Assembly: GCA_963835415.1 (NCBI GenBank)
Contig: CAWIFZ010000005.1
Span: forward strand, 2,937-66,936
Direction: 5' to 3'
DNA length: 64,000 bases
Source of the DNA: an uncultured Actinomycetes bacterium
GTDB lineage: Bacteria; Actinomycetota; UBA4738; HRBIN12
Shown here: piece by piece, positions 2,839 through 30,859 of the stretch
How positions within the stretch are numbered: the first letter of the stretch is position 1
Layout: each line of letters starts with the position of its first letter
Position numbers and translations under genes: made by a program
Notes under the pieces: generated by a model
Told to the model about the DNA's origin: nothing
What the model saw: the letters and a program-made list of their open reading frames with translations, nothing else
Databases searched by the model: none

Positions 2839-3432
2839 ATGGCTGGAAAAACCAAGAAAGAAATCGCGACTTCCTTTATGCAGAAAATTCCACTCGCAGA
2901 CCTCCTTCCAATCAACGTCGGGATGAGTTCGGCGACGGAGCATACGATGGTCTCGATTTCTGGGATCGCCGAAGCTCCCTTTGACGACTGATTGTCAGTC
3001 CAGCAGGGCATTCTGCTACGGTGAAGAAGCTCGCAATGACGGCCAAGATGTCGTCGGTTTTCAGCCTCACGGGGATAAGACCGGCTATCGAGAGTGTGAA
3101 AGAGATTTTCGAAGGTTTTGGCCGAAGCTCCGGATCTCGAAGGGGTCCTTAGTACTGAAGGCATGCTTTGCGTTCGATTTCGCAAGCCAACGAGTGGCAA
3201 GAAAAGCACGGCCATCAGCAACCATTCATGGGGAACAGCAGTCGATTTCAAAATCGTCGGCTTGAAAGCCCCGGGTAACACAGGTGCGACTGTTCCCAAA
3301 TTCATCGCTGTCATGCTCCTCACTTCAACAAAGCAGGCTGGTTTTCAAGGTATCGCCTTTCACGACACGATGCATTTCGAAGTTTCGGAAGAGATGATCA
3401 GGAAATGGTCAAAGGATGGTCTGCTGAAATAG
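2839..3432 (+). pseudogene. Peptidase M15 (VanY/hedgehog-type zinc D,D-peptidase fold), apparently frameshifted twice
   Basis: The C-terminal frame (3118..3432) carries SNHSWGTAVDF followed by DTMHFEV, which matches the S-x-H-x-x-G-x-A-x-D ... H zinc-ligand pattern. The upstream parts continue in other frames (MAGKTKKEIA... from ATG 2839, and ...LTGIRPAIESVKEIFEGF ending near 3115). The gene sits in a visibly AT-rich stretch. Confidence 0.5.
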
Positions 3433-3573
3433 TTCGAAGCTTGGTCATCGAACAGGAAGTTTCGGCGCTCAGCATCCGCACGGCAATATCTTGGGCGGAT
3501 TGAGGGATATCGAGCGGGTCGAGCGCCCCGCTCGATCGGTGTGTCGCAGAATTGGCCAGCTCCGTTGGCCCTG

Positions 3574-4439
3574 TCAGAGCAGCGCGATCACCCGGGCCGG
3601 GCCTCCGGTCGCCCCCTTCACCTTCGGCAGGCCGAGGAACAGCCGTGCCCCGTTTTCCGGGATGGCGTCGAGGTTCGCGACGCATTCGACCCCCCAGCGG
3701 CCGCTGCCCAGCCAGGCATAGTGAACCGGAAACTCGCCGCCCGAATTGAGTCCCGTGTCGAGCGACAACGTATCGACGCCGATGCCTTTCACGTTGCGTT
3801 CGCCGATCAGCATCTGCGCAGCCTCTATGTGGAAGCCGGGCGTGTGGTTCTTCTTCTCACTGTCCTGGCCGGTGAATTTCGGATCGCCGACGAGCTTGTG
3901 CCAGCCGGAATTCATGACGACGCAGCAGCCGTCGGGAAGCGGTCCGTTCCTGGCCTCCCAGGCCTTGATGTCGTCCGGCGTCAGCGACGTGTCGGGATTG
4001 TCCGCGGCGCGGCCGCAATATTGATGACGGCGACCGGCACGATCAGGTCGGAGATCGGGATCAGGTCCGCCGTCATGCCGTCGGCGGAAAAGTGGATCGG
4101 CGCGTCCATATGCGTGCCGCTGTGCTCGACGATCGTCCAGCGATTGAGGTTCACCTTGTCCTTCGCGAAGGTCGACGAGTTGTTCGACGGTGAACCATTT
4201 ATCACCGCTGAACGTCGGAAATCCCTCGTACAGCGCGTGCGACAGATCGACCGTATCGGAGAAGCTCGTGGCGGCGCGAGCCGGTGCGACTCGGGCATGC
4301 GTGGCCGCGGCACCGCGCCGAGGCCAAGTGCGAATCCCGTCTTGAGCAAGCCGCGGCGGGTGGCCTTGCTGGCAGACCGAATGAAGACATCCCGGAGGAC
4401 ACATTTGCAATCTCCTTCCCTCTGTTGCTGTTTCCCCAA
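3574..4439 (-). pseudogene. Cyclase-family protein (kynurenine-formamidase-like fold) with Tat-type signal, at least one frameshift
   Basis: ORF 3981..4439 has the N-terminal motif TRRGLLKTGFALGLGA and the motif HSGTHMDAPIHF. ORF 3574..4455 supplies the C-terminal two thirds (GIGVDTLSLD..., HYAWLGSGRWGVE). The two frames must be spliced near 4000-4050. Confidence 0.6.
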
Positions 4440-4511
4440 ACCAACTCAAATGCACGCATACTAACTAGTTCGTATATTTTGCTTCGGCAGTTGCGATGAG
4501 ACTTGGTATGA

Positions 4512-4954
4512 CTAGCTTTCGAGCATTCCCTTCATGGCGGCGACCGCAATCGTGGTATCCTCGCGCGCCGAGCCCGCGAGCACTGCTGTGGCTGCCTTCG
4601 AGACCAGCGAATGGTGGTAGATCGCCTCGCGGCGATGAATGTTCGAGATGTGGAACTCGATGATCGGGCCGGCAAACATCTTGAGCGCGTCGAGAATCGC
4701 GATCGACGTGAAGCTGAGGCCGGCCGGATTGATGATGATGCCTGCGCCGTCGTCGATCGCCTCGTGGATCAGCCCGACGATCTCGCCCTCGAAATTCGAC
4801 TGGTGGAAGCGTAGCGGCCAATCGCCCGCGGCGGCCCGGCACATCGCCTCGATTTCAGCAAGCGTCGTCGTGCCGTAGATCTCCGGCTCCGCGCTTGCCG
4901 CAGCCGGTTGAGGTTAGGTCCGTTGAGGATGAAGATCGGTTTGGCCAACGTCAT
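4512..4954 (-). pseudogene. aroQ: Type II 3-dehydroquinate dehydratase, frameshifted near the 5' end
   Basis: MTLAKPIFILNGPNLN (ORF 4769..4954) is joined to ...FHQSNFEGEIVGLIHEA...IIINPAGLSFTSIAILDAL...EFHISNIHRRE (ORF 4512..4844). These are classic AroQ motifs split over frames. Confidence 0.7.
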
Positions 4955-4964
4955 CTTCCCTCGC

Positions 4965-6268
4965 TCAGCCCTGATACCCGAATAGCCGGGGCAGCCACAG
5001 CACCACCTCCGGGAAGAAGGTGATGACGACCAGCGAAGCGATCATCGCCCACAGGAACGGCAGGACATCGCGGACGATGTCGCGCAAGCGGAACTTCGGC
5101 GATGCGCGTCATGATGAACAGCAGCAGGCCATAGGGCGGCGTCACCAGGCCGAGCATGATGTTGACCACCACCATCACGCCGAAATGCACCATGTCGATG
5201 CCCAGCGCCTGCGCCGTCGGGATCAGCACCGGCACGATGATCAGCAGGATCGTCGTTCCCTCCAGCACGCATCCGAGCAGCAGCAAAAGGATATTGACGA
5301 GGATGAGGAAGCCGATCGGCGAGAGGTCCCAGCTGGTCAGCAGGACGCGCAGCGAGTCTGGGAATGTTCTCGACGGTCACGACGTAGTTGAACACCAGCG
5401 CGCCGGCGATCAGCATGCCGATCGACGCCGTGGTCCGCGCACTGGCCAGCATGGAGCGATAGAAATCGGCAAAGCCGACGCTGCGATAGAGCACCACGGA
5501 GATGATCAGCGCATAGGCCGCGGCGACGGCCGCCGCCTCGGTCGGCGTGGTCACGCCGCTGTAGATGCCGCCGAGCAGGACGACCGGCATCATCAGCGAT
5601 GGAAACGCCCGCCAGGTGATGCCGGGCAGCTCGCCGAGCGGGGTCGGCGCCTCGACGGGAAAATTGTTCTTGCGCGCCTGCCAGGCGACGATCCCCATCT
5701 GCGCGAAGGCCATCAGCAGGCCGGGGATCACGCCGCCGAGGAAGAGGTAGCCGATCGAGGCACCCGAGACCAGGGCGTAGATGACCATCGGGATCGACGG
5801 CGGGATGATCGGGCCGATCACCGCCGTGACGGCGGTCAGCGCTGCCGCATAGCTCGGCGTGTACTTGCCGTCCTTGGTCATCATCATCTGCATCATCTTG
5901 CCGGTGCCGGCCGCGTCGGCGATGGCCGAGCCGGACATCCCCGCGAAGATGATGCTTTGCACGACGTTGACATAGGCGAGGCCGCCCCTGAAGCGGCCGA
6001 CGACCGCGTCGCAGAAGCGCAGCAGGCGTTCCGTCATCGAGCCGATGTTCATCAGCTCGGCGGCCAGGATGAACAGCGGAACGGCGAGGATGATGTAGTT
6101 CGAATACATGCCGTTGAGGAACTGCTCGGCCGCCGTGCCCATGTCGAGACCGGCGAGGTAGAGATAGAGGATCGAACCGGCAATCATGGCGTGGCCGATC
6201 GGCAGGCCAAGGAATGCCAGGACCGTGATCGCGACGATCGACAGCGAGAACGGGCTTGCGAGGTTCAT
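4965..6268 (-). pseudogene. TRAP transporter large permease (DctM family), two apparent frameshifts (about 5355 and 5085)
   Basis: MNLASPFSLSIVAITVLAFLGLPIGHAM... is intact for about 300 codons. It continues in the frame of ORF 4951..5286 (LLLGCVLEGTTILLIIVPVLIPTAQALGIDMVHFGVM...). The tail ...KFRLRDIVRDVLPFLWAMIASLVVITFFPEVVLWLPRLFGYQG is in a third frame. The start ATG overlaps the dctQ stop (ATGA). Confidence 0.75.
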
Positions 6269-6800
6269 ACGCCTGACCCGGCCTTGGTGGGATCGAACTC
6301 TTGCGGCGCCTCGCCGCGCAGCGCCTTCACGCCCAGCCAGAGATAGCGAACGATGATCGCAACGACGAAAATGACGTAGATCGAATAGAGCCAGTCGAAG
6401 CGTATCTTCAGGTACGCCGTCTTCTCGACCTTCATGAAGGTGACGTAATCGAAGACGGCAGACAGCGACATGGCATAGAGGACGACCAGCGCGACGGCAG
6501 AAACCAGGAACATGATCCTGCGCATGCGCGGACCGGCTGCACCGTAGAGCAGGTCGAAGCGAATCTCCTCCTCCTCGCGGACCACGAAGGCGGCGCCGAA
6601 CAGCACCAGCCAGATCCACAGGACGACGCTTATCTCATTGGTCCAGCCGATCGGCAGGTTGAAGACATAGCGAAAGGCGATCTGCAGGATGAAGGCGGCG
6701 AACATCAGGGTCAGCATCGCCGCCAGCAGATTTTCGGCGCGCCGGTACAGCCAGCCGCCGATCGTGCGAAGCCTTGGGTCCACGAGTGCGATCCCGATGA
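6265..6800 (-). CDS. TRAP transporter small permease (DctQ family); start codon not resolved
   Basis: The C-terminal ~175 codons of ORF 6265..6957 (LYRRAENLLAAMLTLMFAAFILQIAFRYVFNLPIGWTNEISVVLWIWLVLFGAAF...) have the four-TM DctQ layout. The gene lies between dctP and dctM. Confidence 0.6.
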
Positions 6801-6856
6801 GGATTTTCGAGCGGAAGTGGCCGGCGCATCGACGCCGGCCACGGAACTGCCGCTGA

Positions 6857-7843
6857 TCAGAGGGCGTTGATCTTGTCAACGATTCCCGCCGGCCAGTCCT
6901 TGGCGAGATCCGAGCCGAGATATTTCTCCTGGGCAAATTTGCGGAACGCGGCAACATCCGGCTCGTAGAGCTTCAGCCCTTTGCCCTTGAAGAACTCGAC
7001 CAGTTCCTTCTCGCGCGCCAGGTGCTTCTCGGTGCTGAAGGCGATGGCCGCGTCGGCGGCGGCCTGGAAGCGGCCCTGCTTGTCGGCGCCCATGTCGTCC
7101 CAGACCTTCTTGGTCACCGTGAGCAGGTCGAATCCGACCAGATGCGAGGTCAATACGATCTGCGACATCACCTCGTAGAACTTCATGTTCTCGACATTCG
7201 GCAACGGATTGTCCTGGCCGTCGATCGCGCCGGTCTGCAGGCCGGTATAGACCTCGGCATAGGCCATCGGGGTCGGATTGGCGCCGAGCGCCGTCCCGAG
7301 AAACTGCCAGGCATCGCCGCCCGGCATCCTGAGCTTGATGCCGGCCATGTCCGCCGGCGTCGTGATCTTCTTGTCCGGCTTCAACCCGACCTGGCGAGCG
7401 CCGAAATAGGTCGGCCCCAGCACGCGCACGCCGAGCTGGTCTTCGGTCATCTTCTTGAATTCGACGCCGACGTCACTGGCGAAAAATTTCTTCACATGGT
7501 CGGCGTCGCGGAACAGGTAGGCGGAGGTGACGACCGACCATGCCGGGATCTGCTTGGAGATGTCCTGCGGCGCGATATTGCCCATCTCGAGGTTGCCGCG
7601 CTGCAGCGCGACGAGCTCTGTGCCCTGCTTGAACAAATTGCCGCCGTAGTAGCCCTCGAAGACGAAATCGTCCTTGATGGCGTCGGCGAATTTTTTCATC
7701 ATTTCCGCGCGGATGTCCTGTTCCGAGAACACGGCGGAGAAGCGGAGCTTGGGCTTGTCCTGCGCCAGCGCAGGACCAGCGATGGCAGCGCCGAGCAGTC
7801 CCGTTGCGATCAGAAACTCGCGGCGAGTTGTGGTCAAGTTCAT
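6857..7843 (-). CDS. TRAP transporter substrate-binding protein (DctP family)
   Basis: Intact 328-aa ORF with an N-terminal signal (RREFLIATGLLGAAIAGPALA). It is adjacent to dctQ/dctM on the same strand. Confidence 0.85.
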   Translation of the reverse strand: MNLTTTRREFLIATGLLGAAIAGPALAQDKPKLRFSAVFSEQDIRAEMMKKFADAIKDDFVFEGYYGGNLFKQGTELVALQRGNLEMGNIAPQDISKQIPAWSVVTSAYLFRDADHVKKFFASDVGVEFKKMTEDQLGVRVLGPTYFGARQVGLKPDKKITTPADMAGIKLRMPGGDAWQFLGTALGANPTPMAYAEVYTGLQTGAIDGQDNPLPNVENMKFYEVMSQIVLTSHLVGFDLLTVTKKVWDDMGADKQGRFQAAADAAIAFSTEKHLAREKELVEFFKGKGLKLYEPDVAAFRKFAQEKYLGSDLAKDWPAGIVDKINAL

Positions 7844-8016
7844 GGTATCCTCCCAGTTGACCGATGGATGTTGACGTCAGCTTCTACAAAGCAATGTTCC
7901 GCCCGAGCCTCCCGGCGGGCGGCGTATGGACGGCGGCAGGTCGTTTTGTCGCGTTGGAACGACTTCAGCACGGTCGTGTCGCGCAAGTTCGGTGTGATGC
8001 GGGCGAGGCGGCGTCG

Positions 8017-8862
8017 TCATGCCGCGGCCTCGAAATATCGCGCCATCGCGTGTCGATCCGCAGCCAGTCCCGTAAACAGTTCGAACGCACGGACCGCCTG
8101 GTTGACGGCCATTCCCGTGCCGGCAAGGGTGCGGCAGCCGCGCGCGCGGGCCAGCCGCAACAATTCGGTTTCTTCCGGGAAGTAGATGATCTCGGCGACC
8201 CACTGCCCCACGGTCAGAAGCTCGGCGGGGAAAGGCACGCCGGGATATTTGGCCATGCCGACCGGCGTCGTATTGACGATCCCGTCGGCCCCGGCGATTT
8301 CCTGTCTCGCGTCGGAAGCGGTGCGCACACGGCCCGCCATGGGACCCGCAAAATTCTGCCTGAGCTGCTCGGCGCGCGCGGCATCCGTGTCGACAAGCAC
8401 CAGATCGGCGACCCCGAGCTCGAGCAAGGCATAGGCGACCGCAGCCCCGGCGCCACCGGCCCCGAACTGGACGACCTTGTCCAGCTTCGAGCCCGCCATC
8501 CCTTCCCCAAAGCTCTCGATGAAGCCCCAGCAATCGGTGTTGTGGCCCGTCCTTTGACCATCGCGCAGCACGACGGTATTGACCGCGCCGATCGATGCCG
8601 CTTCGGGCGCGAGCTCGTCGAGATGGTCGATCACCGCCTGCTTGAATGGATGGGTAATGTTGAGGCCGGCAAAACCGGATTGCCGGGCACCGGCCAGCAC
8701 ATCGCCGAGCGCATGGTCGGGAAGGTCGAGCGTGTCGAAATCGACCAGCGTGTAACTATAGTTCAGTCCAAGACGAGCCCCTTCCCGCTCATGCATGACA
8801 GGCGACCGCGATGACTGGATGCCGCGGCCGACGAGCCCGATGGCGATCATGTCGTTCGCCAT
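8017..8862 (-). CDS. Shikimate/quinate dehydrogenase (AroE/YdiB family)
   Basis: From ATG 8862: GLVGRGIQSSRSPVMHE, LNITHPFK, HNTD and the GAGGAGAAV dinucleotide-binding motif. The longer ORF 8017..9333 is an upstream run-on. Confidence 0.8.
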   Translation of the reverse strand: MANDMIAIGLVGRGIQSSRSPVMHEREGARLGLNYSYTLVDFDTLDLPDHALGDVLAGARQSGFAGLNITHPFKQAVIDHLDELAPEAASIGAVNTVVLRDGQRTGHNTDCWGFIESFGEGMAGSKLDKVVQFGAGGAGAAVAYALLELGVADLVLVDTDAARAEQLRQNFAGPMAGRVRTASDARQEIAGADGIVNTTPVGMAKYPGVPFPAELLTVGQWVAEIIYFPEETELLRLARARGCRTLAGTGMAVNQAVRAFELFTGLAADRHAMARYFEAAA

Positions 8863-9262
8863 GCGGTCGGCGGCGGGCGCAACCAGCCCGCGCAGCAGAT
8901 CACCGACAGCGTCGGCACCATGGCGCAAGATCACCTCCTTGATACTTGCCCGGCGAAATAAGCTCTGATGCCCCGCGCCGGATTTTCGTTCCGGCAACTG
9001 CAGGCAACTTCCATCGCGCCGATGCACAATGTACGATCTGGTTAGTTTGTCAACGCCCGGCCGACCTGACGGGCAAAAATGCCATCGAGGCAGGCCATGG
9101 ACCCAAAGTGGATGCAGGCGCAGGCGGCAAGTCCACAGTGGCGAACAACCCACATCGCAACCTTGAGCCGGGGCAGCCAATCGCACATTGCTCTGCTGGC
9201 GCAATCGCGCCAATCTCGCCAAGGATTTCGGCTGGGGTGACCATTCGCAGGTCGAGGGCAGT

Positions 9263-9925
9263 ATGAGCGACGCAAAACGACGGACGCGAAAGCGCGGAGG
9301 TTCGCCAACCCGCACCCAGGATCCGGAGGGCACCCGTCAGAATATTCTGGAGATAGCCTCCGAAGAGTTTGCGCTGAATGGCCTGGCGGGGGCGCGCGTC
9401 GACGAGATCGCCGCGCGCACGCGCTCCAGCAAGCGGATGATCTACTACTATTTCGGAGACAAGGACGGCCTCTATCTCAGCGCTTTGGAAAACGCCTATC
9501 GCCAGGTCCGCGAAGGCGAGGCGAAGGTGGACATAGACGGGCTCGGTCCCGTCGACGCGCTGTCGCGGCTGGTCGAATTCACCTTCGATCACCACCACCA
9601 GCACGAAGCGTTCATTCGCATGGTGATGATCGAGAACATTCACCACGGCCAGTTTCTGGAGCGCTCGAAGGTCATTCGCGACCTCAACGTGACGGCGATC
9701 GATCATATTTCGCGGATCTATGCGCGCGGCGTCGAGGATGGTGTATTCCGTCCGGGCCTCGATCCGGTGGAGGTTCACTGGCAGATCAGCGCCTTGTGCT
9801 TCTTCAATGTCTCGAACCGCGCGACGTTCTCGAAAATCTTCGGCCGCGATTTCGGTGCTCCCGATCAGCTCGAGCGGCTGCGCCACAATTGCGTGGAAAC
9901 GATCCTGCGGTTTGTCGCCCGTTGA
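9263..9925 (+). CDS. TetR-family transcriptional regulator
   Basis: N-terminal HTH ILEIASEEFALNGLAGARVDEIAARTRSSKRMIYYYFGDKDGLY. It is divergent from the dehydrogenase/TRAP genes. Confidence 0.8.
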   Translation: MSDAKRRTRKRGGSPTRTQDPEGTRQNILEIASEEFALNGLAGARVDEIAARTRSSKRMIYYYFGDKDGLYLSALENAYRQVREGEAKVDIDGLGPVDALSRLVEFTFDHHHQHEAFIRMVMIENIHHGQFLERSKVIRDLNVTAIDHISRIYARGVEDGVFRPGLDPVEVHWQISALCFFNVSNRATFSKIFGRDFGAPDQLERLRHNCVETILRFVAR

Positions 9926-10038
9926 TGCCTGCGCGCCGATGATCACCGACCGCCTCGCGTCTTGCTTGTAAGGCGAGCGCACGCGATCTACAATGGACGG
10001 ACTAGTTCGTTTGTTGTCGATCAGGTGCCAAGCGATCC

Positions 10039-11435
10039 ATGAAGACGTCCATCGCGACCGTGTCGATTGCCGGAGAGCTGCCCGGAATTGGCGGCCATCG
10101 CGGCGGCCGGCTTCCACGGCGTCGAGATCTTCGAGAACGATTTTCTGGCGTTCGACGGGTCGCCCCGCGATGTCGGAGCAATGGCGCGCGAGGCGGGTCT
10201 GGCGATCACGCTGTTTCAGCCGTTCCGCGACTTCGAGGGCCTGCCCGAGCCGCAGCGGAGCCGCGCCTTCGACCGCGCCGAGCGGAAATTCGATGTCATG
10301 CAGGAGCTGGGCACCGACCTGATGCTGGTCTGCTCCTCGGTCTCGCCGGTTGCCCTTGGCGGCATAGACCGTGCAGCGGCCGATCTTCATGAACTGGGCG
10401 AGCGCGCGGCAAGACGGGGACTGCGCGTCGGCTACGAGGCCCTCGCCTGGGGCCGCTATGTCAGCGATCATCGCGACGCGTGGGAAATCGTCCGCCGCGC
10501 CGGCCACGCCAGCATCGGGCTGATCCTCGATTTGTTCATACGCTGGCCCGCAAGATCGATGTCGACTCGATCCGCAGCATTCCGAAGGACAGGATATTCA
10601 TCGTCCAGGTCGCCGACGCGCCGCTCATCGACATGGACCTGCTCTACTGGAGCCGCCACTTCCGCAACATGCCCGGCGAAGGCGATTTGCCAGTTCGCGA
10701 ATTCATGCAGGCGGTCGCGGCGACCGGTTATGACGGCTATTTGTCGCTCGAGATCTTCAACGATCAGTTTCGCGGCGGCTCCCCCAGGGCGATCTCCGTC
10801 GACGGTCATCGCTCGTTGAAATGGCTGATGGACCAGGTCAGCCGCAGCGAACCGGCGATTGCCGCCGCAAGCCCGCGCATCCCCGACCGCGTCGATGTCG
10901 TTGAAGGCGTCGAATTCATCGAGTTCTCCGCAAACGAAGCCGGCGCCGGCGAAATTGCCGGGTTGCTGCAAAGCCTGGGCTTTCGCAAGGTCGGGCGGCA
11001 TGTTTCGAAGGATGTGACGCTCTATCGGCAGGGCGGTATCAAAATTCTCGTCAACACCGAGCGCCAGGGCTTCGCGCATTCGTCATTCGTCGTCCACGGC
11101 ACGTCGATCTACGCGATCGGTCTCAAGGTCGCCGATGCTCGCTCGACGATGGAGCGGGCGCTGGCGCTCGACGCGGAACCCTTCGCGCAGACGGTACCGC
11201 CCGGCCAGTTGGTCATTCCGGCAGTTCGCGGCGTTGGCGGCAGCGTGATCTATTTTCTCGAACTCCCGCGTTTTGACTCTCTCGCAGATGTCTGGGATCG
11301 CGAGTTCCGGCCGGTCGACGCGGACGGTGGTGGCTCGGGCGTCGGCCTGACCCGCATCGGCGATCACATCGGCCAGACGATGAACCAGGGCGAGATGCCG
11401 TCATGGCTGCTGTTCTACACGGCGATATTCAACAC
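10039..11435 (+). pseudogene. 3-dehydroshikimate dehydratase (TIM-barrel plus HPPD-like domain; QuiC/QsuB type), two frameshifts and 3'-truncated at the segment junction
   Basis: MKTSIATVSIAGELP (frame of 10039) continues as ELAAIAAAGFHGVEIFENDF... (frame of 10067), then FHTLARKIDVDSIRSIPKDRIFIVQVADAP...VEFIEFSANEAGAGEIAGLLQSLGF... (frame of 10480). The homology-like sequence stops at ...WLLFYTAIFNT at about 11436. Confidence 0.7.
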
Positions 11436-11437
11436 CC
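11429..11437. other. Seamless junction between two unrelated sequence segments (contig concatenation or chimeric assembly)
   Basis: The plus-strand dehydratase gene and the minus-strand fbiC gene both lose their C-terminal ends here. Base composition and codon usage also change at this point. Confidence 0.8.
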
Positions 11438-13705
11438 GAGCTTCACCCAGGACACCTGGATGTTCGGGACCAGACCGTCGAGCAGGATGCGCGCCACGGC
11501 GTGCATCCGCAGGTTCTCCTCCGACGTCGCTCCGGGGCGCGCCTTGCCCGCCAGGTAGATCGGCGCGTTCTGATGGACGAACGGCAGCGGCACGAACTCC
11601 GTGAACCCGCCGGTGTCCTGTTGGATCCGGCCCAGTCGCCGGATGTGCGCCACCCAGTGGGGCGGGGCGTCCACGTGGCCGAACATGATGGTCGAACTGC
11701 TCCGGATGCCCAGGTCGTGTGCGGTGCGGACGATCTCCTCCCACGTGTCGGCGGGCAGCTTGCCCTTCGTGAGGAGCCAGCGAACGTCATCGTCCAGGAT
11801 CTCCGCGGCGGTCCCGGGGATCGTTCCGAGGCCGTGCGCCAGGCACTCCTGGAGGAACTCCCGGAACGAGATATCGAGCTTCGTCGCGCCGTTCAGGATC
11901 TCCATCGGGCTGAACGCGTGGATATGCATGCCGGGCGTTCGCTCGCGGATGACATCCAGGAGATCGAAGTAGAAGGAGCCGGGCAGGTCGGGATGGATGC
12001 CCCCCTGCATGCACACCTCTGAGGCTCCGGCCGTCCACGCCTCCTCCGCGCGGTCGGCCACCTGGTCGAGGGTGAGCGTGTACGACTCGGCGTCCACCTC
12101 CCGCTGGGCGAACGCACAGAAGCGGCACCCCACGTAGCAGACGTTCGTGAAGTTGATGTTCCGATTGATCACGTAGGTGACGTCGTCGCCGACGGCCTCC
12201 GCGCGAAGGTCGTCGGCCACCCGGCAGAGCGCATCGAGCGCCGGGCCTTCGGCGCGGAACAAGGCGAGCGCATCCTGGTCGGTGAGGGCACGGTGGGAGG
12301 CCGCCTTCGTCAGCGCGACCCTGATCTCCATCTCGAGGCGCTCGGGGTGCACATCTCGCTTCGACCAGTCGCGGGTGACCTCGAGCGCATCGAAGTCGCC
12401 GTAGACCGCCATCGCGTCGTCGCGCAGGCCCGCGTCGGGGGCCTTGGCGAACTGCAGGTCGATCGTCCGCGGCTTCCACCGGACGTCCGGGTCCTGCCAG
12501 GCGACGGGTTCGGGCACCTGTCCCTCGACGGCCAGCCCGTCGTGGCCGAGCAACGCGCCGACCGGAGCGCGCATCTTCGATGCGAGGTACGGATCGGGGC
12601 GGGCCGCGAACCGGCCGTAGATCGTGAGTCGCTCGCGCAGCACGGAGCCGCGCTCGGCCGTGGTGGCGGTCAGTGCGGCGAGCGTCGGCCACGGCTTCTC
12701 GGGGTTCACGTGGTCGGGGGTCAGCGGCGACACGCCTCCCCAGTCGTTGATGCCGGCGTCGAGGAGGCGCAGTTGCTGCGCCGGATCGGAGAGGTTCGGC
12801 GGCGCCTGCACGCTCATGTGCGGGCCGAGCACGACCCTCGCGGTCGCGACGGCGGCCAGGAACTCCTCGTCCTGCGGCTCGGGGGCGTGACGCATGGCCG
12901 TGCCCGGCTTCGCTCGGAAGTTCTGCACGATCACCTCTTGCACGTGGCGGTAGCGCCGGTGGAGATCGCGGATCGCGAACAACGACTCGGCGCGTTCGCG
13001 GGCCGTCTCACCGATGCCGACGAGGATGCCCGTCGTGAACGGGATGGCGAGGCGTCCGGCGTCCTCGATCGTCCGGAGCCGCACGGCCGGAACCTTGTCG
13101 GGCGAACCGAAATGGGGACCTCCGCGTTCCGTGAGCCGGTCGGAGGACGTCTCGAGCATCATGCCCATCGAGGCGCTCACGTGCTTCAACCGCGCGAGTT
13201 CCTCGTAGCTCATCACGCCGGGGTTGAGGTGGGGAAGCAGGCCCGTCTCCTCGATCACGCGGATCGCGACGGCCCGCAGGTAGCCGAGCGTCGAGCTGTA
13301 GCCGCGCTCGTCCAGCCAGCGCCGCGCGACGTCGTACCGCTCCTCCGGCCGGTCACCGAGCGTGAAGAGCGCTTCCTTGCAGCCCATCTTCCGCCCCGCC
13401 TCCGCGATCGCCACGACCTCGTCGGGCGTGAGGAACGGGTGGTCCAGCTTGGCCGGCGGCTTCGCGAACGTGCAGTAGTGACAGTGGTCGCGACAGAGCA
13501 TGGTGAGCGGGATGAAGACCTTGCGGGAGTACGTGACGATGCGTCCGTGACCGAGATCGCGAAGACCCGCCGCGACGGCCATGAGACGTTCCAGGTCGGC
13601 TCCGCGTGCCGAAAGGAGCGCCTCGGCCTCGTCGAGCGAAACGGCCTTCCCCGACCCGGCGCGAGCGACGGCGCGACGCAACTGCTGCGGGGTCGCCTGG
13701 GCCAT
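11429..13705 (-). CDS. fbiC: FO synthase, fused CofG/CofH (FbiC); C-terminal end missing at the junction
   Basis: 758-aa ORF with two radical-SAM motifs, CRDHCHYC and CYVGCRFC. It ends at ...NIQVSWVKLG, whereas full-length FbiC proteins continue well past this motif. Confidence 0.9.
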   Translation of the reverse strand: MAQATPQQLRRAVARAGSGKAVSLDEAEALLSARGADLERLMAVAAGLRDLGHGRIVTYSRKVFIPLTMLCRDHCHYCTFAKPPAKLDHPFLTPDEVVAIAEAGRKMGCKEALFTLGDRPEERYDVARRWLDERGYSSTLGYLRAVAIRVIEETGLLPHLNPGVMSYEELARLKHVSASMGMMLETSSDRLTERGGPHFGSPDKVPAVRLRTIEDAGRLAIPFTTGILVGIGETARERAESLFAIRDLHRRYRHVQEVIVQNFRAKPGTAMRHAPEPQDEEFLAAVATARVVLGPHMSVQAPPNLSDPAQQLRLLDAGINDWGGVSPLTPDHVNPEKPWPTLAALTATTAERGSVLRERLTIYGRFAARPDPYLASKMRAPVGALLGHDGLAVEGQVPEPVAWQDPDVRWKPRTIDLQFAKAPDAGLRDDAMAVYGDFDALEVTRDWSKRDVHPERLEMEIRVALTKAASHRALTDQDALALFRAEGPALDALCRVADDLRAEAVGDDVTYVINRNINFTNVCYVGCRFCAFAQREVDAESYTLTLDQVADRAEEAWTAGASEVCMQGGIHPDLPGSFYFDLLDVIRERTPGMHIHAFSPMEILNGATKLDISFREFLQECLAHGLGTIPGTAAEILDDDVRWLLTKGKLPADTWEEIVRTAHDLGIRSSSTIMFGHVDAPPHWVAHIRRLGRIQQDTGGFTEFVPLPFVHQNAPIYLAGKARPGATSEENLRMHAVARILLDGLVPNIQVSWVKLGC

Positions 13706-13733
13706 CTCGGCGAGCCTACTACGCTATGCCGCG

Positions 13734-14687
13734 ATGCAGATCGTGGCGCTCGCGGGCGGGGTCGGTGCGGGAAAGTTCCTCCGCGGGGTCGCCCGCGCGT
13801 TCCCCGGTGAACCCTCGACGGTGGTCGTGAACACCGGGGACGACATCACGATCCACGGCCTGCACGTCTCCCCCGATCTCGACTCCGTCTGCTACTGGCT
13901 GGCGGATCTGATGGACCGCGAGCGCGGTTGGGGCCGGGCCGGTGAGACGTTCCACGCGATGGAGGCCATGCGGGCGTCGGGTCGCATCGACGCCTGGTTC
14001 AACCTGGGCGACCGGGACCTCGTGACGCACGTCGTGCGGACGCAGCTCCTCCACGAAGGACGCAGCCTTTCGCAAGCCACCGCCGAGCTGTGCGCGACGC
14101 TGTTCGGCCTGACCCCGGCGGTGATCCCGATGACCGACGACGCCGTGACCACTCGGATCGACGTGTTCGATCCCGCCGGCGAGCCGCTCGACCTGCACTT
14201 CCAGGAGTACTGGGTGCAGCGGCACGCGGTGGATCCGGTGAAAGGGATCCGGTTCGAGGGCGTCGAGCGCGCGTCGCCGGCTCCCGGCGTCCTGGACGCG
14301 ATCGCGCGTGCCGACGTGCTGTTGCTCTGCCCGTCGAACCCGGTGGTGTCGATCGGTCCCATCCTCGCGGTGCCCGGCGTCCGTGAGGCGGTCGCGGCGC
14401 GCCGCGGTCCGGTGGTCGGCGTCTCGCCGATCGTCGGCGGCGCCCCGCTCGCCGGCATGGCCGACAGGCTGATGCCCGTCGCCGGGCTCGAGGTCTCGGC
14501 GCTGGGGGCGGCCCGCGCCTATCGCGATCTGCTCTCGGGGTGGGTGATCGACGAGCGCGACGCCGAGACGGCGCGGGCCATCGCCGACGAGCTCGGGATC
14601 GCCGTCGCCGTCACCGACACGGTGATGCGCGACGACGACGTCGCAGCCGCGGTGGCGGCAACGGCCGTCGACCTGGCAACGCGATGA
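13734..14687 (+). CDS. cofD: 2-phospho-L-lactate transferase (CofD/FbiA)
   Basis: MQIVALAGGVGAGKFLRG N-terminus, VVVNTGDD and SNPVVSIGPIL motifs. The stop overlaps the cofE start. Confidence 0.9.
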   Translation: MQIVALAGGVGAGKFLRGVARAFPGEPSTVVVNTGDDITIHGLHVSPDLDSVCYWLADLMDRERGWGRAGETFHAMEAMRASGRIDAWFNLGDRDLVTHVVRTQLLHEGRSLSQATAELCATLFGLTPAVIPMTDDAVTTRIDVFDPAGEPLDLHFQEYWVQRHAVDPVKGIRFEGVERASPAPGVLDAIARADVLLLCPSNPVVSIGPILAVPGVREAVAARRGPVVGVSPIVGGAPLAGMADRLMPVAGLEVSALGAARAYRDLLSGWVIDERDAETARAIADELGIAVAVTDTVMRDDDVAAAVAATAVDLATR

Positions 14688-15394
14688 TCGAGATCTGGCC
14701 GGTCGAGGGCCTCCCGGAGATCGTGCACGACGACGATCTCGCCGCGATGCTCGCCGAGCCGTTGCGTTCGATGGGCGCGCGGGACGGGGACGTCGTCGCG
14801 GTCACCCAGAAGATCGTGTCCAAGGCGGAGGGTCGCGTGGTCCCCGACGGAGGCGACGGACGATCCGTGTGGGTGACGCGAGAGACCCGGCGGGTCGTCG
14901 CGCGTCGCGGGGATCTGATCATCGCCGAGACCCATCACGGGTTCGTCTGCGCGAACGCGGGGGTGGATGCGTCCAACGTCGAGGAAGGCTTCGTCTCGTT
15001 GTTGCCGGTCGATCCCGACGCCTCGGCGGAGGCTCTCAGGGCATCGCTCGCGCAACGTCTCGGGCTCTCCCGTCTGGGGGTGGTCATCACCGACACGTTC
15101 GGGCGACCCTGGCGCAACGGGCTCGTGAACGTGGCGATCGGGTGCGCCGGCCTGCCGGCGATCATCGACCTCCGCGGCAACGCGGACCATCACGGCCGTG
15201 CCCTGGAGGTCACCGTCGTCGCGCTCGCCGACGAGGTGGCCGCGGCGAGCGGACTCGTGATGGGCAAGAGCGCGCGCGTGCCGGTGGCGTTGATCCGCGG
15301 CGTGGATCTGACCGCCGGCGCGCCCGGCCGCGCGGTGGATCTGATCCGAGCGCCGGACGAAGATCTCTTCCGCGAAGGGGTCATCGAGCCCTGA
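14684..15394 (+). CDS. cofE: F420-0:gamma-glutamyl ligase, single-domain CofE type
   Basis: 236-aa product with VAVTQKIVSKAEGR, ANAGVDASN and VITDTFGRPWRNG motifs. No C-terminal nitroreductase-like extension follows. Confidence 0.85.
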   Translation: MIEIWPVEGLPEIVHDDDLAAMLAEPLRSMGARDGDVVAVTQKIVSKAEGRVVPDGGDGRSVWVTRETRRVVARRGDLIIAETHHGFVCANAGVDASNVEEGFVSLLPVDPDASAEALRASLAQRLGLSRLGVVITDTFGRPWRNGLVNVAIGCAGLPAIIDLRGNADHHGRALEVTVVALADEVAAASGLVMGKSARVPVALIRGVDLTAGAPGRAVDLIRAPDEDLFREGVIEP

Positions 15395-15398
15395 CACG

Positions 15399-15429
15399 CG
15401 AAGAGGGCGGGGGATCCCCGCCCTCTTCG
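15399..15429. terminator. Bidirectional stem-loop between convergent cofE and permease genes
   Basis: Perfect inverted repeat GAAGAGGGCGGGG / CCCCGCCCTCTTC (15400..15412 and 15416..15428) with a 3-nt loop, lying in the 55-nt convergent intergenic gap. Confidence 0.6.
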
Positions 15430-15449
15430 GCCAGACCAGCCCTCGCTCG

Positions 15450-16865
15450 CTAGGCGAGCAATCCGTGGAAGAAGTACCAGGAGAACACGGCCGCCACGAC
15501 GTACATCAGCGGATGCACCTCCCGGAACTTGCCCTGGAGCACCTTGATCACCACGTAGGCGAGGAACCCGGCGCCCACGCCGTTCGTGATCGAGTAGGTG
15601 AACGGCATCATCACGATGGTCAACAGCGCCGGGATGCCGATGGCCGGATCGCGCCACGAGATCTCACCTACCGTCTGCATCATGAGGTAGCCGACGATCA
15701 CCAGGACCGGGGCGGTCGCCTCGGCCGGGATCACCCCCGCGATCGGCGAGAAGAAGATCGCGAGCAGGAAGAGCCCTCCGACGACCACCGACGTGAGGCC
15801 GGTCCTTCCGCCGTCACTGATGCCCGCGGCGCTCTCGATGAACGTGGTGTTCGACGATGCCGATGCCGCGCCGCCTGCCGCGGCCGCCACGGAGTCGACC
15901 AGCAGTACCCGGTTCATCCCCGGGAGCTTGCCGTCCTCATCGAGCAGCTTGGCCTCGTCGGCCAGCCCGACCACCGTGCCCATCGTGTCGAAGAAGTCCG
16001 ACAGCATCACGGCGAGGATCGCCGCCGAGGCGGTGGCCAGCCCCAGCACGTCGAACACTCCGAAATTGAAGTTGCCCAACAACGAGAAGTCGGGAGTGCT
16101 GACGATCTTGTCGGGGATCACCGCGATCCCTTGCTCGAACACGGCGGAGTCGCCGAACCCCTGGTTCACGATGATCGCGAACACCGTCGTGGCCAGGATG
16201 CCGATCAGCAGCCCGCCCTTCACCTTCCGCACCACGAGCGTGGACGTGATGGCGAGGCCGACCACGAACACCAGGACGTGGAGGTTCGAGAGGTTCGGGT
16301 TCAGCGTGATCAGGGTGGCGTCGCTGTTCACGACGATCCCGCCGTTGACCAACCCGATGATCGCCAGGAACAACCCGATCCCGATCCCGATCGCTCGTTT
16401 GAGGTCCATGGGGATGGCGTTCAGGACCGCCTCCCGGAACCCGGTGAGCACCAGGAGCGTGATGATCGCGCCCTCGATCACGATGACGCCCATCGCCTGC
16501 GGCCACGTGAGCCCCAACGTGGCGACGAGCGAGAACGTGACGAACGCGTTCAGCCCGAGCCCCGCCGCGATCGCGAACGGGTAGTTGGCGTAGATGCCCA
16601 TGGCCAGGGTCATGACACCCGCGACCAGGGCCGTCACGGTCAACACCTGCGGGAACGTGAGCGTCGTCCCCGCGCTGTCGGTGACGGAGCCCAGGATCGC
16701 CGGGTTCACGAACAGGATGTAGGCCATCGTCAGCCACGTCGCGAGGCCGGCGACGATCTCGGTCCGCACGGACGAGCCGCGCTCCGTGATCTTGAAGAAC
16801 CGATCGAGCCCGCTCACGCGCGGCTCCCCTACCTTGATGACCCGATCTTGGTCGGTCGTGGCCAT
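15450..16865 (-). CDS. NCS2-family purine permease (AzgA-like adenine/guanine/hypoxanthine permease)
   Basis: From ATG 16865: FFKITERGSSVRTEIVAGLATWLTMAYILFVNP and a multi-TM body. A GGGGGAGGG RBS lies upstream. Confidence 0.85.
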   Translation of the reverse strand: MATTDQDRVIKVGEPRVSGLDRFFKITERGSSVRTEIVAGLATWLTMAYILFVNPAILGSVTDSAGTTLTFPQVLTVTALVAGVMTLAMGIYANYPFAIAAGLGLNAFVTFSLVATLGLTWPQAMGVIVIEGAIITLLVLTGFREAVLNAIPMDLKRAIGIGIGLFLAIIGLVNGGIVVNSDATLITLNPNLSNLHVLVFVVGLAITSTLVVRKVKGGLLIGILATTVFAIIVNQGFGDSAVFEQGIAVIPDKIVSTPDFSLLGNFNFGVFDVLGLATASAAILAVMLSDFFDTMGTVVGLADEAKLLDEDGKLPGMNRVLLVDSVAAAAGGAASASSNTTFIESAAGISDGGRTGLTSVVVGGLFLLAIFFSPIAGVIPAEATAPVLVIVGYLMMQTVGEISWRDPAIGIPALLTIVMMPFTYSITNGVGAGFLAYVVIKVLQGKFREVHPLMYVVAAVFSWYFFHGLLA

Positions 16866-17047
16866 GGCCCTCCCCCGTAAGCCATGCCGGCGGACGAACA
16901 CCGGCGCCCTCGGGGAAGGCGGGATGAGCATAGGCACCGGCCTCACCCGGCGCAAACGAGGTCCTGTCGGTAAGCTTGCGGACCCGACGGACGAGCCGGA
17001 CGAGCCGAACGAACGAGCCAGAGGAACGAAGGAGAGGTACGACACAC

Positions 17048-17872
17048 GTGGCCGGAACCGACCAGCGAAGCGGCTCGAACGAGGATGGCCGCCGCCTGAC
17101 CAAGGCCGAGCGCCGCGAGGAGGCCAGGCTCAAGCGCGAGGAGATCCAGCGCAAGATGGCCACCCGCAAGCGGAACCAGCGGATGGGTCTGGTGCTCGTG
17201 GTGGTCGCCGTCGCCATCGCGGTCGTCGCGGTCTTCATGACGTCGGGCGGCGAAGACGCTTCGGCCTCGGGCATCCCGTCGGCGGCGACCCTCCTGTCGC
17301 AAGCGGACGCGGCCGCGGGATCGGCCGGCTGCGACACCGTGCAGGAGACGCCGAACTACGCGAACGCGCCGGGCGACGACCCGGCGATCGATCACACGCA
17401 CATCGGGACACCACCGGTCACGTCGCCCCCCGCCCTGTCCACGTACGCGACGATCCCGCCCGCCTCGGGACCGCACGATCCTTCGCCGCTCCCTGCGGGG
17501 GTCTACGACTCTCCGCCGGACGTCTACCGCACGATCCACTCGTTGGAGCACGGAGCGGTGATCATCTGGTATTCGCCGGACGCGACCGGCAAGCAGCTCG
17601 ACGACCTCATCGCGTTCTACACCCAGCCGGCGGCGGACCCGGACATCGGTCAGGCGAAGATCATCATCGCCCCGTACGACTACCCGGACCAGGGCGCCGC
17701 CGGGCAGCTCCCCGCCGGCGTGCAGATGGCGGTCGTTGCGTGGCACCGACTCCAAACCTGCACCGCCGTGAGCCTGCCGGTCGCGTTCGGGTTCTCATCG
17801 GTGTACGAGGTCCCTGGGTACGGCGGCCAGACGTACAAGGGCGTCGCGCGCGAGCCGAACGGTGTCATGTAG
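17048..17872 (+). CDS. DUF3105-domain membrane protein, paralog 1
   Basis: GTG start after GAAGGAGAGG. The product has a basic N-terminus, one TM segment, then SGPHDPSPLP...HSLEHGAVIIWY. Confidence 0.7.
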   Translation: MAGTDQRSGSNEDGRRLTKAERREEARLKREEIQRKMATRKRNQRMGLVLVVVAVAIAVVAVFMTSGGEDASASGIPSAATLLSQADAAAGSAGCDTVQETPNYANAPGDDPAIDHTHIGTPPVTSPPALSTYATIPPASGPHDPSPLPAGVYDSPPDVYRTIHSLEHGAVIIWYSPDATGKQLDDLIAFYTQPAADPDIGQAKIIIAPYDYPDQGAAGQLPAGVQMAVVAWHRLQTCTAVSLPVAFGFSSVYEVPGYGGQTYKGVAREPNGVM

Positions 17873-17875
17873 CCG

Positions 17876-18637
17876 ATGGCAGCCAAGAAGAAGCGGAAGC
17901 CGCGCCGACCGCCCCCGAGCGGGACGTCGACCGCGACGACGGCACCGCCGAGCGGCGGAACCGTCTCCCAGCGACAGGAACGCAAGGAGCTCGCCCGCCA
18001 GGCGAAGGAGTCCGCACGCAAGCGTGCCCAACGCTCAGCGCGGATCCGCCGCGTCACCACGTTCGTCGCGGTCGGCGCCGTGGGCGTCGGCATCGTGTGG
18101 TTCTTCCAGCGCGCGGCCAGCCCGCGGCCCGTCTCGGAGGCTGCGATCGCGGCGGCCGAGACGGCGGGGTGCAGCGACGTGCAGACGCCGGCCGCGAGCG
18201 CACCGGGAGGTCTGCATCTGCAGCCCGGCCAGAGCACCACGTATCCGGACCATCCGGCGACCTCGGGATATCACGACCCGTCCCCGCTCCCGATCCCGCC
18301 GCGGGTCTACACGGAGCCGATCAACGAGACGAACGCCGTCCACAACCTGGAGCACGGCGCCGTGATCATGTACTACCGGCAGGCGGGGGACGACGCGCTG
18401 CCGCAGGACGTGGTCGATCGGCTGGCCACGATCGCGAACGGCGGACACAACACGATCCTGGCGCCGTACTCGCCGTTGCCGGACGGCACCGCGCTCGCCC
18501 TCGCCGCGTGGAACAAGCTTCAGACGTGTCCGTCGACGACCACGGCCGCGCAGGCCGCGACGATCGCGAACGGATTCATCGACGCGTTCCTGTGCACGAG
18601 CAACGCGCCTGAGGGCAACCTGGGCGAAGGCTGCTAG
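17876..18637 (+). CDS. DUF3105-domain membrane protein, paralog 2
   Basis: Same layout as paralog 1: KKKRK-rich N-terminus, TM segment, SGYHDPSPLP...HNLEHGAVIMYY. It starts 4 nt after paralog 1 ends. Confidence 0.7.
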   Translation: MAAKKKRKPRRPPPSGTSTATTAPPSGGTVSQRQERKELARQAKESARKRAQRSARIRRVTTFVAVGAVGVGIVWFFQRAASPRPVSEAAIAAAETAGCSDVQTPAASAPGGLHLQPGQSTTYPDHPATSGYHDPSPLPIPPRVYTEPINETNAVHNLEHGAVIMYYRQAGDDALPQDVVDRLATIANGGHNTILAPYSPLPDGTALALAAWNKLQTCPSTTTAAQAATIANGFIDAFLCTSNAPEGNLGEGC

Positions 18638-18659
18638 GCCCGCCCGTCCGACATCCGTA

Positions 18660-20384
18660 TCAGGACGTCTTGCAGGTCCCGCCGCTCCGGCACGTGATCG
18701 TCCCGTGCTCGAACGTCGCCGAGGCCGATCCATCGTCCTGCGTCTGCACCCGGGACGTCGGGAACCCGAGCGCGCCGCCTGCGCCACCGTGGCCGTTGTA
18801 GGAGGCGAGCACGTTCCCCCACAGGGCGAAGGCACCGATCCCACCCTTCCAGTAGATGCGTCCGTGCTCGAAGTCGGCGCGGGAGCAGCCGTCGGGGCAC
18901 GTCGCGCCTGCGTGCTTCCCGAGGCTGACCGGATCCGCCACGGGGAGGCCGAGCACCCCGGGCGCCCCGCCGGCGACCAGGTACTCCTGGTAGAGCGGTC
19001 CCTTCAGCCAGACGGCGAGGTCGACGCCGGCGTTGCGATAGATCGCTCCGGACTGGAACGTCTGACGAGCCCCGCCGGGAAGCGACTTCGCGATCGACGT
19101 CGGGAGACCGGGCTCGCACATCAGGTCGTCGTACTTCGAACGGATCGCGCCGACGACGTTCTTGTCGGCGTTGATCCAGACACGGTCGTCGGGCAGGGCC
19201 AGGGCGGAACGGATCTCGGTGCCGCTGACGCTCGCCGTCCCCTTGACTCCGCGCACGACGGCGTCCTCGATGCGGCCGGACACCCCACGATCGATCTTGC
19301 CGAATCCGGACACCGCGCCGATGTCGCCCGTGTACGGGGCGAGCGCGGTGGTCAGCGCTCCGGCCGTGAACTCCCGGCTCCAATCGGTCCACGGGTTCGC
19401 GGCCGTGTAGTCGCCCGGGTCGCAGACGCCCGCCAGGTACGGGTAGGTGGCGAGCGGCGTTCCCCACTGCACGTTGAGGTCTTCGGTATGCCCGCCGTCG
19501 GACGCGGTGAACACGGTCAACGCGACGGCGCCCTTGTACGTGACGATCGACCCCGTGGTCGAGCGCACCGCCTTGATCCACCGGTGGCCGTCGAGGCCGC
19601 CCTCCTTGTCCCAACCGACGTAGACCTGGTCGTTCGAGCCGTCGGTCAGATGGCAGTTGCACGTCGGCTGCAGGCCGTACTTCCGGATCTTGTAGAGCGC
19701 GAAGCTCCGAGCCGCGACCGCTTGCGCCCGCAGCGCCTCGGAGGGCCAGCTGCTCGGCACCTCGCCGATCCCCAGCAGGTACTCCTCGAACGGGAGCCGC
19801 GCGATCAATCGGAGCGAACAGTCCTGCGCGCACGCCGTCAGGTTGAACTCGAGCGTGCCGCGGTTGTACGTCGCACCGCCCTCGGGCACCGTGACGCGCG
19901 CTCCGTGATCGGCATACGTGGCGAACAGGTCGGACGCCGGGCCGCCCCAGGTCTTCCCGCCCACCACGGCGCCGTCGGCGTCGTGCACCTCGTACGCGCC
20001 GTCCACGGACCGGACGACCCACGTCTCACCGTCGGGGATCTTGCCCACCGGCGTGCCGCCGACCGCTCGCTTCACGGAAAGGCGCACGGGTCCGGCCTCC
20101 GCCGTCAGATGCAGCGCGTCCTCGGCCGTTGCCAGCGCGACGCGGATGTCACCGGGCGGGTCGGCGATCTTCGAGACCTTGGTGCCGCTGTAGAAGTGGG
20201 TGAGGATCTGCGTCGACGTCCAGCCGTCGCTCGCCAACCCGTACGCGCCCCACTGGGAGAGGCCGAGACCGTGCCCCCAGCCGCTGCCGTAGAGCGTGAA
20301 GGGATCGCCCGCGCGGGCGGAGGCCGCGGGCAGGATGGTCGCCGATACGGCGACGACGAGCGCGAAGAGACGTATGCGTCGCAT
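18660..20384 (-). CDS. SpoIID/LytB-domain protein with C-terminal LGFP repeats (secreted)
   Basis: Signal peptide MRRIRLFALVVAVSATILPAASARA. Motifs GWGHGLGLSQWGAYG, EALRAQAVAARSFAL and FTASDGGHTED. C-terminal GVLGLPV / GALGFPT repeats. Confidence 0.75.
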   Translation of the reverse strand: MRRIRLFALVVAVSATILPAASARAGDPFTLYGSGWGHGLGLSQWGAYGLASDGWTSTQILTHFYSGTKVSKIADPPGDIRVALATAEDALHLTAEAGPVRLSVKRAVGGTPVGKIPDGETWVVRSVDGAYEVHDADGAVVGGKTWGGPASDLFATYADHGARVTVPEGGATYNRGTLEFNLTACAQDCSLRLIARLPFEEYLLGIGEVPSSWPSEALRAQAVAARSFALYKIRKYGLQPTCNCHLTDGSNDQVYVGWDKEGGLDGHRWIKAVRSTTGSIVTYKGAVALTVFTASDGGHTEDLNVQWGTPLATYPYLAGVCDPGDYTAANPWTDWSREFTAGALTTALAPYTGDIGAVSGFGKIDRGVSGRIEDAVVRGVKGTASVSGTEIRSALALPDDRVWINADKNVVGAIRSKYDDLMCEPGLPTSIAKSLPGGARQTFQSGAIYRNAGVDLAVWLKGPLYQEYLVAGGAPGVLGLPVADPVSLGKHAGATCPDGCSRADFEHGRIYWKGGIGAFALWGNVLASYNGHGGAGGALGFPTSRVQTQDDGSASATFEHGTITCRSGGTCKTS

Positions 20385-20444
20385 GGGAAGGGGTGTTCGG
20401 TCGGAAGCGGCACCGTACCATGCCGATCCCGCTCGAACCGGCAT

Positions 20445-30839: not shown

Positions 30840-30859
30840 CCGTGAAGGCTAGCGGAGAC

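Follow-up and report, generated by a model that had tools for sequence, protein, structure and literature searches.

A probable inter-phylum chimeric join within fbiC at a contig of an actinobacterial metagenome-assembled genome

INTRODUCTION

Contigs that fuse different genomes are misassemblies of metagenome assemblies and metagenome-assembled genomes (MAGs) that are addressed by GUNC (PMC8201837), and such misassemblies are also treated in [quoted passage not shown] (bioRxiv 10.1101/2025.04.22.649783) and in "Pre-binning correction of chimeric contigs..." (bioRxiv 10.64898/2026.10.15.759294). Contig C5 of the actinobacterial MAG studied here resembles the known inter-genome chimeras in that it combines lineages of two phyla, changes abruptly in composition and taxonomy, has truncated genes at the joint, and bears the foreign part at its end. 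Contamination estimated from markers is low (2.74%) for this MAG, as in those cases, and the presumed chimera is therefore invisible to marker-based checks. A difference from such contigs is that the native continuation could here be located exactly, at the first base of contig C12 from the same assembly, so that the joint also shows where C12 truly adjoins C5. De Bruijn-graph chimeras typically involve a shared repeat or k-mer, whereas the flanks on C5 have only 2 to 3 nt in common.

Genomic islands and integrative elements likewise appear as a block of foreign composition and gene content beside native genes. In contrast to these elements, the block on C5 lacks an integrase, a tRNA target, and a direct repeat, and it has one boundary only, with no second flank in host sequence. 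Furthermore, both its cargo gene (a dehydratase gene) and its target gene (fbiC) are cut mid-domain, and none of the sequences examined from the same species or genus has an insertion at the site. Here, we describe this joint within a 64,000-nt stretch of C5 (G000:C5:2937-66936), referred to as the window; the features discussed are compiled in Table 1.

Table 1. Features of the window that flank or form the joint
Feature	Position in window	Strand	Evidence
Foreign alphaproteobacterial segment (Hyphomicrobiales, Mesorhizobium-like)	1..11434	.	Composition, Pfam domains, best loci, synteny
Dehydroshikimate dehydratase gene, 3'-truncated (QsuB/QuiC-type)	10033..11436	+	Pfam PF01261 and PF14696
Probable chimeric joint	11434..11437	.	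Base-level comparison of C5, C12, and congeners; 26 metagenome contigs compared
fbiC (FO synthase, CofG and CofH domains), first 757 codons	11435..13705	-	Pfam, congener matches, in silico join
Native actinobacterial chromosome of the MAG	11435..64000	.	Collinearity with congener G004; tetranucleotide profile typical of the genome

RESULTS

Position and sequence of the joint

An initial annotation of the window, made from the sequence alone, had reported an abrupt junction at positions 11425 to 11440. The junction is real, and the ends of homology of both flanks place it at C5:14370-14373, 14.4 kb from the end of the contig. At this point, foreign ...ATATTCAACA(CC) abuts native (CC)CGAGCTTCACCC..., and base-level comparison of C5, C12, and the congeners revealed just 2 to 3 nt common to both flanks (CC/CCC at 11435-11437). 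The two flanking genes had been described as truncated ends abutting within about 8 nt; both truncations were confirmed, but the 8-nt gap was not, as the homology ends overlap by those 2 to 3 nt. A repeat-mediated misjoin of the de Bruijn type is ruled out by this short overlap and by the lack of a repeat at the joint. In agreement with the earlier description, the contigs contain no Ns, the joint bears no meaningful repeat, no tRNA was detected, and neither integrase nor transposase domains turned up among the scanned open reading frames (ORFs). A search for Rfam families also returned no match.

Composition and frame errors on the two sides

A change in composition had also been claimed at this point. 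The GC content is ∼0.60 to 0.64 on the left versus 0.69 to 0.72 on the right, and the GC3 of genes is 0.70 to 0.86 versus 0.91. The tetranucleotide profile switches at the joint, with distances from the genome mean at about the 99th percentile or higher in 3-kb windows over C5:1-14000 and typical values past the joint. Elsewhere in the assembly, no stretch fits the foreign profile comparably, the few nearer windows being far from both profiles. Other compositional outliers were considered as chimeric tails and rejected; for example, C3:124.5-130.5 kb is internal and far from both profiles.

The density of frame errors follows the same division, but by degree. At least 6 frame changes occur in the 14.4 kb on the left (two in the dehydratase gene, two in dctM, and at least two in the AsmA-family gene) versus 3 in ∼37 kb aligned to a congener on the right, a contrast of small counts obtained with reference genomes at unequal distances. 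The reported change in the frequency of frame errors is thus confirmed, with the higher density on the left, whereas the right side is not error-free.

The left segment is alphaproteobacterial

A Mesorhizobium-like alphaproteobacterium is the source of the first 14,370 bases of C5. This segment extends 2,936 nt beyond the left edge of the window to the end of C5 (14,370 nt in total), and its gene order reads AsmA-family gene (frameshifted), an AT-rich stretch of 1 kb, cyclase gene, aroQ, dctM (frameshifted), dctQ, dctP, shikimate dehydrogenase gene, TetR gene, and dehydroshikimate dehydratase gene. The qui/TRAP gene order is kept in Mesorhizobium and relatives, with synteny to Mesorhizobium loci over C5:7450-14366. 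The two sides of the joint had been called phylogenetically unrelated, and taxonomic best hits bear this out: on the left, the best 80 loci for the dehydratase are all alphaproteobacterial (80/80; 58 to 73% amino acid identity), and on the right collinearity with a genome of the same genus begins exactly at base 11435. The switch in gene content was likewise recovered, with AsmA, TRAP, and qui-type genes on the left and F420 genes on the right, as well as a WhiB gene on the true continuation. The dehydratase had no homologue in any of 80 further genomes from the order of the host, and the DNA of the left segment had no match in 12 congeners. An exact-product look-up of the foreign DctP returned no record. 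The location of the foreign segment at a contig end is in line with a chimeric join.

The AsmA-family fragment is 54 to 77% identical to open frames of ∼1,300 aa in five alphaproteobacterial genomes (Mesorhizobium and relatives), and its assignment was made via an intact 1,319-aa Mesorhizobium homologue. The AsmA Pfam model (PF05170) matched nothing in the whole assembly because this gene is too broken and divergent. Pfam and NCBIfam scans of ten ORF fragments of C5:1-7400 also gave no matches.

Both genes at the joint are truncated

The dehydratase combines a xylose-isomerase-like TIM barrel with an HPPD-type domain, and its frame, which ends ...LLFYTAIFNT, contains two frame changes relative to the Mesorhizobium homologue, near positions 10082 and 10537. 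It had been annotated as cut short, and eight alphaproteobacterial homologues indeed run on for 167 to 169 further residues; the last 167 codons are missing from the window. A search for this 167-residue tail in the rest of the assembly yielded chance-level matches only.

On the opposite strand, the ORF at 11429-13705 encodes 758 aa, ending ...NIQVSWVKLGC before the stop codon. In nine same-genus genomes, the fbiC open frames are 834 to 835 aa long, and every match ends at query residue 757; 71 FbiC residues are therefore absent, and foreign DNA supplies the last Cys together with the stop codon. Together with a Pfam CofH_C match that covers only profile positions 3 to 59 of 125, these lengths substantiate the earlier statement that FbiC falls short of full length. 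Both the dehydratase and FbiC are cut within conserved domains.

The missing C-terminal residues of FbiC (71 to 72) are encoded outside the window in the same assembly, at C12:1-219. Contig C12 starts with GGCATCGAG..., i.e., with the codon at which C5 leaves fbiC, and continues after the 3' end of the gene with a WhiB gene, a gene for a Lys/Ala-rich repeat protein, and a GT2 gene. Joining C5 and C12 in silico restores an 828-aa FbiC that is 99.3% identical over its full length to FbiC of the metagenome contig L105. Exact-product look-ups returned no record for the truncated FbiC and, for the intact L105 protein, solely the record of its own JGI contig.

Related genomes continue natively across the joint

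The native side was aligned by blastn with the congener G004, and collinearity extends from window position 11435 to 35731 and beyond. In seven congeners, homology to C5 ends at C5:14371-14372 and resumes at C12:1-5; fbiC is intact in these genomes, and its 3' end and the DNA downstream of it correspond to C12 from base 1. Six metagenome contigs (L095, L096, L103, L105, L106, and L111), which are 98 to 99.5% identical to the right side of C5, run from C5:14371 into C12:1, with 160 to 3,700 nt on one side and 1,100 to 2,900 nt on the other. Their identity on the C12 side is 93 to 98% in five cases and only 77% in L106. None of the 26 metagenome contigs with the 29-mer adjoining the joint continues into the foreign sequence. 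The same adjacency in orthologous genomes had been named as one observation that would contradict an artificial join; the seven congeners and six metagenome contigs continue natively instead. C5:14371 and C12:1 are immediate neighbors on the actual chromosome of the actinobacterium.

DISCUSSION

Judging from these sequence comparisons, the joint is almost certainly an inter-phylum chimeric join made in the sequencing or assembly of the MAG, with no biological feature behind it. The initial annotation had favored contig concatenation or a chimeric join over horizontal transfer, a reading that the natively continuing independent contigs, the fbiC end at C12:1, and the alphaproteobacterial left side support. 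A Mesorhizobium-like piece would have been butted, mid-gene to mid-gene, onto the true end of an actinobacterial contig within fbiC, most likely through a long read that was itself chimeric or through a false overlap during long-read assembly (we infer both technology and assembler). Such a join would create a branch point in the assembly graph, which may account for the start of C12 at precisely this base; a mixed-population graph, in which a minority strain carries a real insertion at this site, could also set the start of C12 at the joint. The foreign organism was probably present at lower coverage, which would account for the several-fold more single-base frame errors in its consensus.

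A binning or post-assembly artefact is a possible, somewhat less favored variant of the chimeric join, with the same practical outcome. Here, separate alphaproteobacterial and actinobacterial contigs would have been concatenated without a spacer during scaffolding, reassembly, or file handling, and no chimeric read would be involved. The joint, which has no Ns and essentially no overlap, would suit this course of events, as would the position of the foreign part at the contig end. Concatenation does not account for the native contig stopping inside a gene at the very base where C12 begins, unless the assembler had already broken there. A chimeric read that produced a branch point in the graph would explain both observations together.

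It is very improbable that the strain itself gained at least 14 kb of alphaproteobacterial DNA by a strain-specific insertion or illegitimate recombination that disrupted fbiC, the assembler having broken at the other boundary. That second boundary is absent from the assembly, and C12 starts at the exact fbiC breakpoint without foreign sequence. Moreover, the site is intact in the six same-species contigs and the seven congeners. The sequence is continuous without Ns, and its 2- to 3-nt microhomology would fit illegitimate recombination, but integrase, tRNA, and flanking repeat are all lacking at the joint, the foreign dehydratase is cut mid-domain, and the foreign segment runs off the contig end. 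The foreign composition is also entirely unameliorated, and the denser frame errors on that side suit differing coverage rather than a single molecule. Slightly less credible still is the full biological scenario, in which at least 14 kb of rhizobial DNA, comprising a quinate/shikimate catabolism cluster and TRAP transporter genes, entered fbiC of a soil actinobacterium through illegitimate recombination, so that F420 (FO) synthesis was knocked out and the assembler broke at the other boundary.

The chimeric join has no biological value, and its significance is one of data quality. The first 14.4 kb of C5 (∼0.5% of the assembly) are contamination from another phylum, which would place AsmA, TRAP transporter, and quinate/shikimate catabolism genes in an actinobacterial genome and could mislead users into claiming gene transfer between phyla, predicting wrong metabolic capacities, and assuming synteny where there is none; as a remedy, C5:1-14,370 can be trimmed from the MAG. 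The join also produces two false gene models for truncated proteins: an FbiC of 758 aa whose C-terminal Cys is spurious, and a partial dehydratase whose frame extends into fbiC in the antisense direction. A literal reading of the contig would turn fbiC into a pseudogene and suggest that F420 synthesis had been lost in this organism. The usable correction is that C12 and C5 are true neighbors, which can be joined at C12:1 and C5:14371.

fbiC breaks off on C5 and resumes on C12

The assembly under study (2.98 Mb in 16 contigs, 68 to 69% GC) is estimated to be 87.9% complete and 2.7% contaminated. The window spans C5:2937–66936, and the junction placed by the initial annotation at window 11425–11440 (C5:14361–14376) is separated from the left end of contig C5 by just 14.4 kb. 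We narrowed the joint to window 11434–11437, where the homologies from either side overlap by 2 to 3 nt (CC/CCC at 11435–11437); the spacing of ∼8 nt claimed between the two truncated 3′ ends does not exist.

The fbiC gene was present in all 20 relatives searched. The C5-encoded protein contains two radical-SAM stretches, and its CofH_C match is restricted to profile positions 3 to 59 of 125. Because the open frames of nine same-genus genomes reach 834 to 835 aa, with every match ending at query residue 757, fbiC on C5 is truncated, as proposed; it lacks 71 codons, and its last codon and stop come from unrelated DNA. Alignments of seven congeners to C5 end at C5:14371–14372 and pick up again at the very start of contig C12 (GGCATCGAGGCG...), which provides the Gly codon where C5 leaves fbiC and then 71 further fbiC codons. 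Joining the C12 and C5 flanks by script yielded an 828-aa FbiC with 99.3% full-length identity to that of the public metagenome contig L105. Judged from these comparisons, C12 and C5 are neighbours in the real chromosome, where fbiC is intact.

Scanning of public metagenome contigs with a 29-mer just inside fbiC matched 26 contigs, none of which carried the foreign continuation after it. On the fbiC side, six of them shared 98 to 99.5% identity with C5; directly past the 29-mer they were identical to the C12 start, and they covered 160 to 3,700 nt on one side of the site and 1,100 to 2,900 nt on the other. Over longer stretches, five were 93 to 98% identical to C12 and L106 only 77%; the compared part of C12 contains a variable tandem-repeat array. 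These six contigs and the seven congeners, in which the C5 adjacency might have recurred, all continue natively into C12-like sequence. Multiple off-diagonal hits show that the array differs in length from one same-species contig to another, and the repeat protein at this locus has a weak HC2 histone-H1-like Pfam match, under the family cut-off.

Features of the joint and related loci (window coordinates unless a contig is named)
Feature	Position	Strand	Description
fbiC ORF	11429–13705	minus	758-aa FbiC; C terminus ...NIQVSWVKLGC, then stop
Dehydroshikimate dehydratase	ends at joint	plus	AP_endonuc_2 TIM barrel, HPPD N-terminal-type domain; end ...LLFYTAIFNT
Left-side gene order			AsmA-family, AT-rich ∼1 kb, cyclase, aroQ, dctM, dctQ, dctP, shikimate dehydrogenase, TetR, dehydratase
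AT-rich stretch	2400–3500		∼1 kb, GC ∼0.51
ORF in AT-rich stretch	2712–3323	minus	203 aa; no Pfam hit
Left frame changes, dehydratase	∼10082, ∼10537
Left frame changes, dctM	∼5363, ∼5085
Left frame changes, AsmA-family gene			at least 2
Right frame changes	near 23177, 24697, 31876
C12 genes after fbiC 3′ end			WhiB, Lys/Ala-rich repeat protein, GT2 glycosyltransferase
Repeat-protein gene	C12:671–1096		141 aa, nearly all AARKKTAARKP-type repeats; shortly downstream of true fbiC 3′ end and WhiB gene
Tandem DNA array	C12:677–1090		periods 18, 33 and 69 nt
Tetranucleotide outliers elsewhere	C3:124501–130500; C7:474001–483000; C1:201001–207000		GC 0.60; 0.69; 0.66
fbiC in two overlapping frames, same-genus assemblies	G003:C5:184275–186546; G010:C8:849254–851525

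The segment left of the joint is alphaproteobacterial

Homologues of the dehydratase in eight alphaproteobacteria extend 167 to 169 residues beyond its end, which bears out the second claimed truncation; the missing 167-residue tail was not found anywhere in the assembly. The best 80 loci for the dehydratase among 185,579 species genomes were all from Alphaproteobacteria (58 to 73% identity), including Mesorhizobium, Aminobacter, Rhizobiaceae, and other Hyphomicrobiales, and these genomes keep the aroQ-to-dehydratase order. The aroQ product matches PF01220. An intact 1,319-aa homologue from Mesorhizobium montanum, which bears PF05170, identified the AsmA-family gene, whose identity across five alphaproteobacterial genomes is 54 to 77%. 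Against 12 same-genus genomes the left 11.4 kb gave chance hits only (30 to 50 nt), and a search of 80 other genomes from the host's order yielded no dehydratase homologue. On the right, alignment of the window to the congener G004 starts at exactly base 11435, stays collinear to 35731 and then goes on in blocks, in agreement with the switch in gene content and taxonomy first noticed. Since the AT-rich stretch has alphaproteobacterial DNA on both flanks, nothing there points to a further chimeric joint.

Composition changes at the same point: GC rises from ∼0.60–0.64 to 0.69–0.72, and GC3 of genes is 0.70 to 0.86 left of the joint and 0.91 right of it. When tetranucleotide distances of 3-kb windows were ranked against 978 windows taken elsewhere in the genome, all those in C5:1–14000 fell at about the 99th percentile or above, versus the 4th to 81st percentiles past the joint. 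The foreign profile recurs nowhere else in the assembly. The strongest outliers elsewhere are contig-internal and distant from the foreign and genome profiles alike, with the C3 windows marginally nearer the foreign one.

The reported change in frame errors held as a higher density on the left (at least six in 14.4 kb versus three in the ∼37 kb alignable to G004), a difference only of degree. The three single-base changes in native genes probably reflect errors in the assembly consensus rather than pseudogenes; those at 23177 and 24697 lie where the initial annotation saw wzt and wzm disrupted. The split fbiC of two same-genus assemblies suggests that MAGs of this genus often contain such frame errors.

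The joint is an inter-genome chimera

With the fbiC remainder at the C12 start and six contigs and seven congeners in the native arrangement, the joint is an inter-genome chimeric contig and not a real biological feature, as initially favoured over horizontal transfer. Bases 1 to 14,370 of C5 come from a Mesorhizobium-like alphaproteobacterium in the same sample, and their attachment here is artificial. The first base of C12 coincides with the attachment point, which is what an assembly-graph branch point would leave if, of two incoming edges, one was fused to the outgoing edge while the other became a contig of its own. The probable origin is a chimeric read or a falsely detected overlap during long-read assembly, with less coverage of the foreign organism, as suggested by four observations: the joint has no shared k-mer (only 2 to 3 nt), single-base frame errors occur genome-wide, they are denser on the foreign side, and the contigs are few and long. 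A simple joining, end to end, of two already assembled contigs would be another form of the same artefact and would look alike in these data.

A real strain-specific insertion of foreign DNA into fbiC is very improbable: it needs a second boundary, and C12 has none; it is absent from every same-species contig seen; its cargo gene would be cut mid-domain; and its DNA would be completely unameliorated. Nor is there any mobility signature. As the initial annotation stated, no tRNA or meaningful repeat was found near the joint and no integrase-like domain in the scanned ORFs; no Rfam family matched either. Two defining features of genomic islands were tested, an integration signature and a pair of boundaries; neither was found for the C5 foreign segment, which is therefore not a genomic island. 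The joint is instead a textbook example of inter-genome chimeric contigs, the error class that GUNC targets (PMC8201837) and that has been described in long-read metagenome assemblies (bioRxiv 10.1101/2025.04.22.649783) and in near-complete MAGs (bioRxiv 10.64898/2026.10.15.759294).

In practice, C5:1–14370 should be trimmed and C12 joined to C5. The truncated FbiC and dehydratase gene models are to be disregarded, as is any conclusion that this actinobacterium carries alphaproteobacterial genes.
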